Shown: positions 7,813 through 11,233 of the stretch, piece after piece
Layout of the letters: every line of letters begins with the position of its first letter
Position numbering within the stretch: the first letter of the stretch is position 1
Source of the DNA: Kofleriaceae bacterium
GTDB lineage: Bacteria; Myxococcota_A; Polyangia; Haliangiales; Haliangiaceae
NCBI GenBank assembly: GCA_050248555.1
Contig: JBFWSC010000003.1
Coordinates: forward strand, 14,016-25,723
Reading direction: 5' to 3'
DNA: 11,708 bases
Notes under the pieces: model-generated
Seen by the model: the letters and a program-made list of their open reading frames with translations, nothing else
Databases searched by the model: none
Told to the model about the DNA's origin: nothing
Made by a program: the position numbers and the translations under genes

Positions 7813-9092
7813 TGGCGTTTCTCGACGACGGCGAAGCCATTGCCGTTCTTCACCGCGCGACGTAGCACCGCGAGAAAGCGCGCGACCGGATCCTTCGCGA
7901 CCGATTTCGGTGGATCGATGGCGAATGGCCACTCGGACTTCATGTGCCGATCGAGTAGCGCCACGAGCTTCGCAGAACCGCCATGCGTCTTCTCGAGCGC
8001 GTCGAATGCAGCGAGCAGCGCGCGCGCTTCGGTGGGCGAATAGAGATCGTCGTCCGTTCGGGACGCTGCGGGGAGCAACTCCAGCAACCGCCGGATGCTC
8101 TCGAGATCGCCGACGACTTGCGACTCCTCTTCGGTGACGACGACGTCATCGCTCAGGGCCACATCGATGGCCTGGAGCCGAAACTCGATCTTCTGGGCCT
8201 GCGCACTCCGGCGTGCGTTCTCGATCTCGTCGGCCGGTGCTTCGATGATTCGCAGTACGAGCGGAGTTCCTGCACGCGGGCCTAACCGGCGCTTCTTCGC
8301 GCGATTCTCTTCGACGAACGCATCCAGGCGTCGCATCGACTCTTCCGGGCTGACCACCTCGGGCTCGGGCTCGGGCAGCGGCTCCTCCTCGATGACCCAG
8401 AGGCCATCGCCCTCTCTCGCCTGGGTCAGGAGCTCGACGAGCTCGTCCTCGATCGGCCCTCGTCGCGACTTCTTGATCTTCGCCAACGTCGCCTCGACCG
8501 CCTCGCGAAGCTCGACCGGCGACCGTCCGTCAATCGCCTTGCCGGTCACGTCCTCCACCCGCTCCGTGAACGACTCCCACATAGCCCGCGCGCCATCGAC
8601 CTGGAGGTGGCGCGAGGCCGTCGCGCGCGTGCGAAGCTCGGGCTCCGAGGTGCGTGCCGGAGCGAGGTACATGCCGAGGCGCGCCAGCACGGGGCGTGGC
8701 GCTCGAGGCTCCTCTTGGAGCCAGAATCCTGCCGTCGCGTCGACGGGCTCGCGCAAGAACTCGGCGACCGCGGTGAAGAACGGCGTCCGCCTCGCGGCCG
8801 GCAGCGTCGAGAGCGCAGCCGTTGTGGCCTCGCGGCGCGCACGCGTCGACAGATCGTCCCAGCGCTTCTTCGTCGCGCGACTCACCAGCTCGACGACTGA
8901 GGTGATCGAGTCGGACCGTCCCGGGACCACGCGCGTCGCGATCGCCATGCGCGCGAGCCGCGCGAAGAGCTCGGCCTCGATCGCGTGGTGGTCCTCTCCG
9001 CTTCGCAGCGCCTCGAATGCTCGCTCGCCGAGCGCACCGAGTTCTGTGTCGTACGCGGGTGGAACGAGAAAGAGTCCGATGCGACGCACCAC
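7809..9092 (-). CDS. hypothetical acidic protein, 427 aa, translationally coupled to the upstream DUF4157 gene; candidate partner or immunity factor
   Basis: On the minus strand the GTG start at 9092-9090 overlaps the TAG of the DUF4157 gene (9094-9092) by 1 nt. Amino-acid composition is normal for coding sequence rather than the poly-Arg of wrong-frame ORFs. It has an E/P-rich linker (EEEPLPEPEPEVVSPEE). It contains the motif MRRLDAFVEENRAKKRR, which is also present in the toxin. Its stop (CTA at 7809-7811) overlaps the stop of the convergent ATPase gene. I recognise no known domain. Confidence 0.65.
   Translation of the reverse strand: MVRRIGLFLVPPAYDTELGALGERAFEALRSGEDHHAIEAELFARLARMAIATRVVPGRSDSITSVVELVSRATKKRWDDLSTRARREATTAALSTLPAARRTPFFTAVAEFLREPVDATAGFWLQEEPRAPRPVLARLGMYLAPARTSEPELRTRATASRHLQVDGARAMWESFTERVEDVTGKAIDGRSPVELREAVEATLAKIKKSRRGPIEDELVELLTQAREGDGLWVIEEEPLPEPEPEVVSPEESMRRLDAFVEENRAKKRRLGPRAGTPLVLRIIEAPADEIENARRSAQAQKIEFRLQAIDVALSDDVVVTEEESQVVGDLESIRRLLELLPAASRTDDDLYSPTEARALLAAFDALEKTHGGSAKLVALLDRHMKSEWPFAIDPPKSVAKDPVARFLAVLRRAVKNGNGFAVVEKRH
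8286..8336. repeat. copy 1 of a ~50-nt near-repeat encoding M-R-R-L-D-A-F-V-E-E-N-R-A-K-K-R-R within the 427-aa gene
   Basis: Plus-strand text is cttcttcgcgcgattctcttcgacgaacgcatccaggcgtcgcat. Compare cgcttcgcgcggttctcctcgacgaacgcgtcgagacgagccat at 10139-10189. About 40 of 47 nt are identical and the peptide is the same. Confidence 0.8.
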
Positions 9093-11233
9093 TAGCGAAC
9101 CTTATCGATGAACTCGTCGAATGTGTCGATCGCCGAGTTGGGAACGAGCTCGACCTTCCATCCGAGATCGAGCGCCTCCTTCTCGAACGCTGCCATCGTC
9201 GTCTTGTCGAGCCCCTTGTAGCCATCCGCCGACACGAACAAGACCTTGTCGGTCACATCACTCGCACGCCTTCCCATCACGCTCGCGGTCGTGCCGAGGC
9301 CCGCGTTGTGTCGCGCGAGCTGTGCGATCGTTTCACTTCGCTTGGAGGCGTCGAGCCACGTCGTCGTGCTCCAGTGCTTGACCTCGCCAACCGCGAGCTC
9401 GCCCATGTCGCTCTGGAGCAAGAGGTCGACGCTCTTGTTGCCTCCGTAGTCGATGCCGCGGCGCATCTCCTTGATGCTCGCGCCCTTTCGTTTCTTGAAC
9501 ACCGACTTCACGAAGCTCGGTGTCTTCACGAAGCGTGCGACGCCCTCTTCGCCGAGAAAACCGACCATCTTGCTCGCGAACGAGTCGCGCGACTTCGACG
9601 CGATCTTCCGTTTCTCGATGATGTCCTCGAGTACGTTCCACGGTAGATGCGACGCTTGATCGGTGAACGCGACGATCGAGTCGGGTTTGAGCTTCCCGGA
9701 CTCGAGCTTCTTCGCGATCCACGTGACGTCGGCGGTTCCTTTGATCTGCCGATCCATCAGCTTGATGATCAGATCGCGATTCTTCGTCTTGTCGTAGATC
9801 GCCTTGAGCGCCTTGACCTGCCCGCGCTTCAGCTTCGACGCGGTCTTGAGCAGGAGCTTCGCTTCGTCGTCGATGTGCTCGAGCAGCTCGACGCCGATCT
9901 TCTCGAGCTGCTTCGATCCCTTACCGAGGGCGCCTCGAAGCTTCGCGGCGCCTTTGATCTTGTGGACCGGCGTGATCGCGAGGAGGAGATCCACCGGGCC
10001 CTCGACCGCGAACATGCTGAGAAACAGGACAAAGGGCAGCGTCGCTGCGACCGCTGCGCCCTGAATGTTCTGGCCGTACGCGTGGCGCTGTTCCTGAAGA
10101 GCTTGGACCTCCTTCTCCTCGTCGGTGGGCTCCGTCTCCACGCGTCGCTTCGCGCGGTTCTCCTCGACGAACGCGTCGAGACGAGCCATCGCGATCTCGG
10201 GCGCCGTGTCGATGAACTTCGCATCGGCTTCCTTCATCGCCGCCGCCGTCGCATTGGTGAAGGCCACGTCGATCTCGAGCATCGTCTGCGAGACCAACGA
10301 CTCGCGGCGGAAGAACATCGGCTCGATCCCATCGGCTGAGATCGGGAGCCAGGCGCCACCGCCGATGTAGCCCGTGATGCCGTAGCGGAACGAATCGATG
10401 CCTCCGTAGGCGAGCCTCAGCCAGCACCTCCGTGACGCGAGCTCCGCGGCGACGGCTCGCGCCCCGGCGTTGAAGAACGCGCCGTGCTCGCTCGACGAGT
10501 AGAAGCTCGGTGCGAGGATCTCGAGCGGATTGATGTCGATCTCGGTCGCGACCTTCCCGCGCAGCTTCGCGGCGGCGTCCCTCTCGTCCTCCCATGGCTT
10601 GCGTTCTCTCGCGCGCTTCTCGATCGCCGCGGTCGCGCCATACGTGATCGGCGGCAGCGTCGCGAGCGTTTCGCCGAGCTGCCTGAAGCGCCGGTCGTAT
10701 CGGATGAAGTTGAAGAACTGCTCGAGGATCTTGTCCTTGTTACTGAGGCGACGAAGGTACGGGTACGTCCTCAAGAGGTGATCCGTGATCTTCGTCTGGT
10801 CCTGCGAGTAGTCGGGATCCGGCATTCGGTCGAACATCGCGGGCGCGGCCGCATGCTGGACCTGCGGCATCGAGGCCGGATGCGGACCGACGGAGACTGT
10901 TCGCGCGAGCTGACGGGCTTCCAGCTCGGCACCGTCGGGGTTCGTGCTGCTCGTACCGTGCTGTTGCGCTTGCGCGACGTGCACCATCTCGTGCGCGATC
11001 AGCTCGCGCCCGCGCGCCTGATCGGGATTGTACTGACCCGCTCCGAAATAGATGTCCGACCCTATCGTCACGGCGCGCGCGCTCGTCGCCTCGGCGAGCG
11101 CCGCGGCACGAGCATCGGCGTGCACGCGAACGCGGTCGAGCGAGAACATCGCCCGCGGCGCGGACGGCGCCTGGCGCGCCGCGGTATCGGCGCTCGCGGT
11201 CACCAGCTTCGATGCGGGTCGCTGCGCCTTCAT
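9092..11233 (-). CDS. DUF4157 domain-containing multidomain protein, 713 aa: N-terminal HExxH DUF4157, a central unknown region, a hydrophobic segment, and a Lys-rich lower-GC C-terminal module with a PD-(D/E)xK-like motif; putative polymorphic toxin or effector
   Basis: The ATG at 11233-11231 is preceded by GGGGGG and lies 13 nt after the stop of the upstream ORF. Residues 28-90 (FSLDRVRVHADARAAALAEATSARAVTIGSDIYFGAGQYNPDQARGRELIAHEMVHVAQ) match the DUF4157 signature (DxxRVHxD ... G.DIxF..G.Y.P.S..G..LLAHEL.HVxQ) including HEMVH. The hydrophobic stretch AAVAATLPFVLFLSMFAVEGPVDLLLAITPV spans aa 392-420. Residues ~421-600 are very Lys-rich (KIKGAAKLRGALGKGSKQLEK...). The C-terminus carries VDLLLQSDMGELAVGEVKHW, a D ... 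ExK nuclease-like pattern. There is no N-terminal signal peptide. Confidence 0.85.
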   Translation of the reverse strand: MKAQRPASKLVTASADTAARQAPSAPRAMFSLDRVRVHADARAAALAEATSARAVTIGSDIYFGAGQYNPDQARGRELIAHEMVHVAQAQQHGTSSTNPDGAELEARQLARTVSVGPHPASMPQVQHAAAPAMFDRMPDPDYSQDQTKITDHLLRTYPYLRRLSNKDKILEQFFNFIRYDRRFRQLGETLATLPPITYGATAAIEKRARERKPWEDERDAAAKLRGKVATEIDINPLEILAPSFYSSSEHGAFFNAGARAVAAELASRRCWLRLAYGGIDSFRYGITGYIGGGAWLPISADGIEPMFFRRESLVSQTMLEIDVAFTNATAAAMKEADAKFIDTAPEIAMARLDAFVEENRAKRRVETEPTDEEKEVQALQEQRHAYGQNIQGAAVAATLPFVLFLSMFAVEGPVDLLLAITPVHKIKGAAKLRGALGKGSKQLEKIGVELLEHIDDEAKLLLKTASKLKRGQVKALKAIYDKTKNRDLIIKLMDRQIKGTADVTWIAKKLESGKLKPDSIVAFTDQASHLPWNVLEDIIEKRKIASKSRDSFASKMVGFLGEEGVARFVKTPSFVKSVFKKRKGASIKEMRRGIDYGGNKSVDLLLQSDMGELAVGEVKHWSTTTWLDASKRSETIAQLARHNAGLGTTASVMGRRASDVTDKVLFVSADGYKGLDKTTMAAFEKEALDLGWKVELVPNSAIDTFDEFIDKVR
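9100..10000 (-). other. compositionally distinct (lower GC, Lys-rich) C-terminal module of the DUF4157 protein
   Basis: By eye this stretch is ~52-58% GC against ~70% elsewhere in the window. Lys codons (AAG/AAA) dominate here, whereas the rest of the window strongly prefers Arg. High GC returns immediately in the downstream 427-aa gene. Confidence 0.6.
10139..10189. repeat. copy 2 of the near-repeat, encoding M-A-R-L-D-A-F-V-E-E-N-R-A-K-R-R-V (aa 349-365 of the DUF4157 protein)
   Basis: See copy 1. This copy lies just upstream (in protein terms) of the hydrophobic segment and the low-GC module. Confidence 0.8.
10964..11152 (-). other. DUF4157 domain (putative Zn-metallopeptidase-like HExxH, HEMVH at ~10979-10993) within the 713-aa protein
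   Basis: The domain is recognised by eye from the conserved motif string. Coordinates are computed from the residue positions. Confidence 0.75.

Follow-up and report, generated by a model that had tools for sequence, protein, structure and literature searches.

Several described systems come close to the locus analysed here. Toxins associated with extracellular contractile injection systems (eCIS), known as EATs, carry an N-terminal DUF4157 domain (Geller et al. 2021, PMC8213781; Danov et al. 2024, PMC11297309), and the two proteins of the AlgoCIS cargo pair Cgo1/Cgo2 display a system-specific similarity of their leaders, DUF4157 being dispensable for loading (bioRxiv 10.64898/2026.05.27.728243). 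In NTP-dependent conflict systems, the effector-associated domains (EADs) are found in copies that are closest to a lineage-specific paralogue, for which a homotypic coupling has been proposed (Kaur et al. 2020, PMC7159879). The SitA/SitI lipoprotein toxins belong to myxobacterial outer-membrane exchange (PMC5562445, PMC8546572) and, finally, contact-dependent pairs such as CdiA-CT/CdiI (4zqu, 4g6u, 5j4a) and TseT/TsiT (7dym) associate a PD-(D/E)xK nuclease with an immunity protein. Here, we describe a toxin gene and its downstream partner gene, located in a stretch of 11,708 nt (the window) of a metagenome-assembled genome (MAG) of a Kofleriaceae bacterium (GCA_050248555.1, contig JBFWSC010000003.1, positions 14,016-25,723), and more precisely a short internal peptide, predicted to be helical, that the two proteins share.

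The gene pair itself is an ordinary member of these known kinds, i.e., a DUF4157 eCIS-type toxin with a PD-(D/E)xK nuclease, followed by an immunity-like gene. The toxin resembles the EATs by its N-terminal PF13699 domain with HExxH, its long linker and its C-terminal toxin domain, and the likeness extends to a nearby AAA+ gene and to relatives found within eCIS loci. With the CdiA-CT/CdiI and TseT/TsiT pairs, it has in common the toxin fold and its catalytic D..ExK, an immunity gene directly downstream, an acidic partner and an entry-like region ahead of the nuclease; unlike the contact-dependent immunity proteins, the partner family is large (283-427 amino acids, aa), multi-domain and YfbM-like. 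To our knowledge, no peptide shared between toxin and immunity protein has been described for pairs of this type. The elements concerned are the following:

9092..11233, minus strand: toxin gene, 713 aa, with a short N-terminal leader, a DUF4157/eCIS_core domain, a central region, the motif helix, a hydrophobic hairpin, a helical region and a PD-(D/E)xK nuclease
7809..9092, minus strand: partner gene, 427 aa, probable cognate immunity protein
10142..10198, minus strand: toxin copy of the shared, predicted helix (aa 346-364, EIAMARLDAFVEENRAKRR), with the identical core at 10148-10183
8274..8348, minus strand: partner copy of the shared, predicted helix (aa 249-273, PEESMRRLDAFVEENRAKKRRLGPR), with the identical core at 8295-8330
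8349..8396, minus strand: acidic, proline-rich linker of the partner (aa 233-248, VIEEEPLPEPEPEVVS), between a GLWV strand and the helix

The 12-residue peptide RLDAFVEENRAK is identical in the toxin (aa 351-362) and in the partner (aa 255-266). The surrounding segments, toxin aa 349-365 (MARLDAFVEENRAKRRV, encoded at 10139-10189 on the minus strand) and partner aa 253-269 (MRRLDAFVEENRAKKRR, encoded at 8286-8336 on the minus strand), are identical at 14 of 17 positions, 12 of them contiguous, and at 16 of 21 when the upstream PE..M is included. This region is the top local alignment of the toxin against the partner (blastp E 3e-6), and its Smith-Waterman score of 81 compares with 44 +/- 6 for shuffled partners, none of the 300 shuffles reaching 81. 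An earlier note on this DNA had reported the shared motif, and it proves to be non-random and exact in its coordinates and peptides; the translational coupling of the two genes is also as described there, the GTG start of the partner overlapping the TAG stop of the toxin by 1 nt, at 9092. Three Logan assemblies, independent of one another, contain these genes with the same sequence, as does an NCBI MAG of Kofleriaceae, hence the shared peptide is not an assembly artefact. No third copy of the motif, with up to five substitutions, was found in the window or in a 13.5-kb public contig (L001).

According to the AlphaFold models, the shared segment is an alpha-helix in both proteins. The toxin copy is modelled as helix 2-20 of the C-terminal module (predicted local distance difference test, pLDDT, 77-84) and the partner copy as helix 249-273 (pLDDT 70-86), the mean confidence being 88.9 for the toxin module and 86.6 for the partner (predicted template modelling score 0.44). 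The similarity is limited to this one helix of ~20 residues; its flanks are unrelated and it forms no autonomous globular domain. In the partner, the helix comes after the GLWV strand and the E/P-rich linker, whose presence ahead of the motif had been correctly noticed, and it opens the C-terminal domain; the linker is non-helical in the model and its length differs between homologues. In the toxin, the motif had been placed at the boundary before the hydrophobic segment. It does open a conserved module, but the hydrophobic segment begins ~27 residues later, at aa 392.

The helix has counterparts in both families. A homologue search with the partner returned the partner itself alone, and one with the toxin returned DUF4157-domain relatives alone; an exhaustive HMMER search, for which toxin aa 93-713 and the partner were concatenated into one query, returned 71 proteins. 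A helix of the pattern L-[DE]-x-φ-φ-E is aligned at this place in some 30 relatives of the toxin and some 10 of the partner. The toxin family reads at this position, for example, ELDAIVEEGDAA, ELDALIEERLAA, QLDELVERGLEH and TLETMLEEMREA, and the partner family RLLDGYKEEMAS, RLRAHIEGRAEA, RLDELVVRGDDE, RLAKLAEESYAS and RLGAFIAEQDWK, always after VSPEES-like residues, the partner motif aligning with VSPEES.R.L..φ.EE.R of its homologues. These partner homologues were confirmed by a family hidden Markov model (HMM); they comprise P0050, P0068, P0083, P0092, P0099, P0104 and the downstream genes in the loci L026, L028 and L029. On the toxin side, three N-terminal heads precede the module, i.e., DUF4157 with the central region, the central region alone (the L030 toxins, in which DUF4157 is absent) and a lipoprotein signal peptide, and the helix stays with the module under each of them. 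All the homologues of the two families thus keep a helix here, amphipathic and free to vary in its sequence. The earlier note would have regarded the repeat as incidental if homologues lacked the motif in one of the two proteins and no hybrid genes existed. The outcome is mixed: the helix is kept in homologues of both, the same sequence is not.

The likeness lies in the peptide and not in the DNA. The two copies had been described as ~85% identical and, on this ground, as the product of a recent duplication or gene conversion. Such a value is reached in the 12-codon core alone (31/36, 86%); the identity is 36/44 (82%) in the best ungapped stretch and 38/51 (75%) over 10139-10189 and 8286-8336. 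The core contains five differences in its 12 codons, all of them synonymous. Two independent back-translations of RLDAFVEENRAK, drawn from the codon usage of the window (GC content at third codon positions, GC3, of 0.81-0.95), are expected to agree at 31.1 of 36 bases and 7.3 of 12 codons, and we observed 31 of 36 and 7 of 12. Since base and codon identity both equal the expectation from codon usage, there is no DNA signal beyond the peptide; the synonymous sites look randomised, and a recent duplication or gene conversion of the motif is not indicated. Because all the core differences are synonymous and codon identity is that expected, the likeness looks maintained as a peptide. Over six cognate pairs, the shared residues use identical codons in 28 of 52 cases, versus 23.3 expected, and one Ser common to both proteins of L029 is encoded once by AGC and once by TCA. 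We also ruled out an RNA- or DNA-level element, the likeness residing in the peptide while the codons differ.

We then compared toxins and partners in 16-residue segments anchored on the conserved Leu. Cognate toxin and partner have 13 identical residues of 16 in the window, 9 of 16 in L029 and again in L030, 6 of 16 in L026, 5 of 16 in L020, 3 of 16 in L031 and 1 of 16 in L028, and the non-cognate combinations about 4 on average. For the seven pairs, the summed identity is 46 versus a permutation mean of 29.3 (exact permutation P 0.003). For the five HMM-anchored pairs, P is 0.017; no permutation exceeds the cognate arrangement, whether or not the window pair is included. When the whole toxin and partner of L029 are aligned, the best match falls on the motif region (16/36 identical, blastp E 6.6e-4, shuffle P about 0.05). 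Pair-specific runs are also found elsewhere, i.e., ANLRAM in L030 and LA.LAEE in L029; moreover, EEMREAR occurs both in the partner part of the fusion protein P0048 and in the motif of the L020 toxin, and the last 157 aa of this toxin show 73% identity to the toxin part of P0048. A cognate co-variation of the helices is suggested by these comparisons, not established.

This situation can be set against the two described cases of shared elements. Like the eCIS cargo pairs, the window pair consists of two proteins of one system with a common system-specific peptide. However, the cargo pairs share a disordered N-terminal leader and their second protein is a cargo, whereas the pair described here shares an internal helix, folded according to the models, and its second protein looks like an immunity protein. 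Also unlike what is seen in eCIS, the helix persists in relatives in which the toxin is devoid of DUF4157 and whose contig has no eCIS gene on record. With the EADs, the likeness is one of logic: the element shows an EAD-like closeness in adjacent products, complete in the window (12/12), moderate in L029 and L030, and absent in L028. The EADs, however, are globular and link an effector to an NTPase core, whereas the window helix is a single element of ~20 residues that would link a toxin to a probable immunity protein. A single internal helix common to a toxin and an immunity-like protein is distinct from both the EADs and the eCIS leaders.

Several observations bear on the role of the partner. 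No match was found for it in Pfam and NCBIfam (E <= 0.1) or in PADLOC, and its profile retrieved only a spurious STAT6 coiled-coil match among the PDB sequences; its predicted structure resembles YfbM, the DNA mimic DMP12 and CdiI. The order toxin-then-partner is kept in the window and in L020, L021, L022, L026, L028 and L029, and L030 and L031 present analogous partners; an orphan partner copy is found in L019. The net charge is +15 for the toxin C-terminus and -6 for the partner. Because of this conserved order, the tight or overlapping junctions, the tandem pairs (L030, L031), the orphan copy, the acidity and the YfbM/DMP12/CdiI-like fold, the partner is most likely the cognate immunity protein, as judged from gene context and fold, and perhaps also a chaperone. 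The partner also contains an internal duplication (window 8394-8900, aa 65-233), in which aa 65-125 resemble aa 174-233 (31% identity, E 2e-4) and both repeats finish with G[FL]W[LV].EEP. A tandem duplication is likewise seen in the homologue P0092, and the short homologue of L028 (172 aa) ends 15 residues past the motif helix.

The explanation that we favour, to which we give a probability of about 0.4, is that the shared helix is a toxin-mimicking or self-pairing element in the recognition between the toxin and its cognate partner. The partner would present a copy of the leading helix of the toxin, and the two helices would pair with each other in a pseudo-homotypic contact; alternatively, they may compete for the same co-evolving surface, as a decoy or by helix swap. 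The partner would thereby be coupled specifically to its own toxin, and selection would keep the peptides alike while the DNA drifts. We infer here the immunity role, the physical contact and the mimicry. A stronger version, which we put forward tentatively, would make of the helix a specificity code: the immunity protein would neutralise or escort its cognate toxin via the helix copy, acting as a decoy, by helix swap or as a pseudo-homodimer, and the helices would co-evolve toward identity within a lineage. We know of no description of a mimicry-based toxin-immunity recognition for eCIS, contact-dependent inhibition, type VI secretion or SitA toxins. Among the functions listed in the earlier note, that of a docking element remains the most plausible. 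If the helix mediates cognate recognition, it would represent a short and readable specificity determinant, from which cognate pairs could be predicted and with which toxins of this family could be re-targeted or disarmed.

Several points weigh against recognition through the shared helix. First, ordinary purifying selection (omega about 0.1, by our estimate) could also leave 12 codons free of non-synonymous changes, so that zero replacements in so few codons are not a proof of unusual constraint. Second, P is only 0.02 in the seven-pair set and 0.083 in the HMM-anchored set when the window pair is left out, the whole-protein shuffle is clearly significant for the window pair only and not for L020, L026, L028, L030 and L031, and there is no pair-specific likeness in L028, with only 5/16 in L020. 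Moreover, the partner positions of L030 and L031 were chosen by eye, partly by their resemblance to the toxin. Third, the exact 12-mer is unique to this genome: LDAFVEENR was looked for in 185,579 species genomes and matched 15 times, always in unrelated proteins and never over the full RLDAFVEENRAK, and hhalign detected no similarity between the toxin and partner family profiles (probability 0.7%). Finally, the lipoprotein forms place the helix beside the lipid anchor, probably in another compartment than that of the cytoplasmic partner.

The main alternative, to which we give a somewhat lower probability, is that the identity is a neutral relic. A short patch would once have been copied, by gene conversion or template switching, between the two adjacent genes, whose helices were already similar, and purifying selection would since have kept the peptide while the synonymous sites became random, giving identity without shared function. 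The strong identity is indeed confined to this genome, the other loci are weak or non-significant in the unbiased scans, and family-level profile similarity is absent; the helix is structural in each fold, which is enough to explain purifying selection, and old conversions could be accommodated by the slight, non-significant codon excess over the six pairs (28 vs 23.3). The window pair itself, however, shows no DNA-level excess. A conversion and a single later mutation could not have produced the AGC/TCA serine of L029, no permutation of the HMM-anchored set scores above the cognate arrangement, and independent pair-specific runs are found elsewhere (ANLRAM in L030, LA.LAEE in L029 and EEMREAR in P0048). 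In addition, homologous recombination normally requires a longer identical tract than two diverged helices provide. If the motif is a neutral relic, it is harmless and, at a GC3 near 0.85, the 86% DNA identity over 36 nt adds nothing beyond peptide identity.

A third, system-specific factor could also recognise both helices, namely the AAA+ ATPase, the machinery that loads eCIS particles, or else the DUF4157 metallopeptidase, in which case both proteins would be cleaved there. The first and the last of these are encoded at the locus:

10958..11167, minus strand: DUF4157/eCIS_core domain of the toxin (aa 23-92; PF13699 E 6.4e-22), with HEMVH (HExxH)
5995..7812, plus strand: AAA+ ATPase, 605 aa, convergent with the pair, winged-helix and AAA domains (PF00004 E 4.8e-25, PF22977)

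This adjacency makes such a factor conceivable, as do the relatives lying in eCIS loci (L020, with Tail_P2_I, and P0045, with a weak CIS_tube match next to it), the system-specific N-terminal similarity of the published cargo pairs (bioRxiv 10.64898/2026.05.27.728243) and a possible involvement of DUF4157 in cargo processing (PMC8213781). On the other hand, the helix is kept in the L030 toxins, which are devoid of DUF4157, and in the lipoprotein forms of L031; no AAA-domain gene is on record in L019-L031; the known loading signals are disordered N-terminal leaders, and the motif is an internal helix folded with confidence in the models; DUF4157 is dispensable for AlgoCIS loading, and an immunity protein would not be expected to be loaded. 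For these reasons, a protease site or an ATPase tag, which the earlier note had also proposed, is unlikely, and we regard third-factor recognition as a whole as improbable. An eCIS cargo would enter the particle by means of a disordered N-terminal leader, assisted by an AAA+ ATPase of the Afp15/Pvc15 type; in the window, a winged-helix AAA+ protein adjoins the pair. Its nearest PDB relatives are VAT, Cdc48 and p97 D2, and with PADLOC it was the only protein of the locus to be matched, weakly, to the IetA and TRIP13 models. We treat the AAA+ ATPase simply as a neighbour of the toxin-partner pair. No eCIS structural gene (sheath, tube, baseplate) was found in the window or in the contig L001.

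The C-terminal ~370 aa of the toxin is a self-contained module in which the amphipathic helix (as predicted) is followed by an acidic loop, the hydrophobic hairpin, a helical region rich in Lys and, at the end, a nuclease, the last of which has the restriction-endonuclease fold with D..(D/E)xK. Its two main parts are:

9965..10060, minus strand: hydrophobic hairpin (aa 392-423, GAAVAATLPFVLFLSMFAVEGPVDLLLAITPV), hydropathy maximum 2.09, family consensus LFAVEGPxDLLL..PV.K
9095..9475, minus strand: PD-(D/E)xK nuclease domain (aa 587-713; D603, E617, K619)

The hairpin is the most conserved piece of the entry-like region. A nuclease module, so far uncharacterised and equipped with a hydrophobic hairpin of its own, is thereby delimited at 9095-10201 of the window (toxin aa 345-713); its relatives with other heads are P0051-P0067, L030 and L031. 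The same module follows the motif in all of the 60-odd toxin homologues that cover the motif position, while the N-terminal head varies, and no alternative, unrelated C-terminal toxin domain was found on a conserved N-terminus among the relatives covering the motif. About 10 of the toxin relatives are long forms, the best of which align from the central region through the C-terminus, and about 20 are short (380-450 aa), their homology beginning at query positions 255-277, which correspond to the motif. The lipobox pattern is present in 13 of the 20 short forms, and on visual inspection variant boxes are seen in four more, two others being truncated; the window toxin itself has no signal peptide. 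By their architecture, these short forms are like SitA/SitI: they are lipoproteins (signal peptide and Cys) that end in a nuclease and are followed by a partner gene, frequently in tandem arrays, L031 containing three tandem lipoprotein-toxin/partner pairs; the MAG of the window also comes from a myxobacterium, and its toxin has DUF4157 in place of the lipoprotein signal. This distribution over different organisms suggests that a single payload is delivered by two or three routes. Attached to an eCIS-type DUF4157 head or to a lipoprotein signal, the module would connect two such routes with the same payload and the same partner family.

That the motif is a recombination junction for the exchange of C-terminal cassettes, as the earlier note had envisaged, is very improbable: it does come first among the conserved elements of a module found behind various N-terminal parts, and L030 has repeated and broken toxin-partner copies beside a transposase-like open reading frame, but no homologue has a different C-terminus after the motif, the nuclease-only proteins P0080 (1199 aa) and P0087 (1258 aa), which have only their last ~230 aa in common with the toxin, join at about aa 475-487, the DNA identity of the two copies is no higher than the peptide demands, and the sole hybrid gene, P0048, is not joined at the motif. 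The hybrid that the earlier note had proposed to look for, with the toxin N-terminus, the motif and then the partner C-terminus, was not found among the relatives; in P0048 (375 aa, from a metagenome), the end of a toxin (corresponding to aa 556-712) is fused in frame to a partner devoid of its N-terminal part, and this may be a real read-through fusion or a decayed locus.

The module had also been described as low in GC. Its GC content is lower (0.61 vs 0.67), which is explained by its amino-acid composition (13% Lys), GC3 being unchanged (0.85 vs 0.86); a foreign origin of the C-terminal module, of which the low GC might have been a sign, is ruled out by this unchanged GC3. A metagenome scan with the module profile gave three loci and no additional pair, and tblastn against plasmids gave no match. 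P0080 and P0087 contain neither the motif helix nor the hairpin, their N-terminal ~1000 aa have no Pfam domain, and the nuclease of P0080 matches PF02021 (UPF0102). In L030 (ENA contig ctg54559c), near-identical toxin-partner pairs are present in two to three copies, interleaved with a transposase-like open reading frame of 483 aa and with broken copies (toxin of 541 + 102 aa; transposase of 81 + 95 + 259 aa), which looks like active rearrangement.

As regards the rest of the window, its left half (28-5929) carries a hybrid histidine kinase/response regulator and a resistance-nodulation-division (RND) efflux pair (membrane-fusion protein and pump); the histidine kinase and RND genes appear unconnected to the toxin locus. 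On the other side of the AAA+ ATPase gene, a CTAG palindrome at 7809-7812 is the place where its stop, on the plus strand, overlaps that of the convergent partner gene, on the minus strand. Upstream of the toxin, the window contains one more feature:

11247..11708, minus strand: 3' end of a gene encoding 1575 aa, co-oriented with the toxin gene, with no Pfam match and no copy of the motif

This gene ends 13 nt before the toxin start, and it is itself preceded by a co-oriented DUF4132 gene (352 aa), the two genes being located in window 11247-11708 and at positions 2043-7821 of L001.

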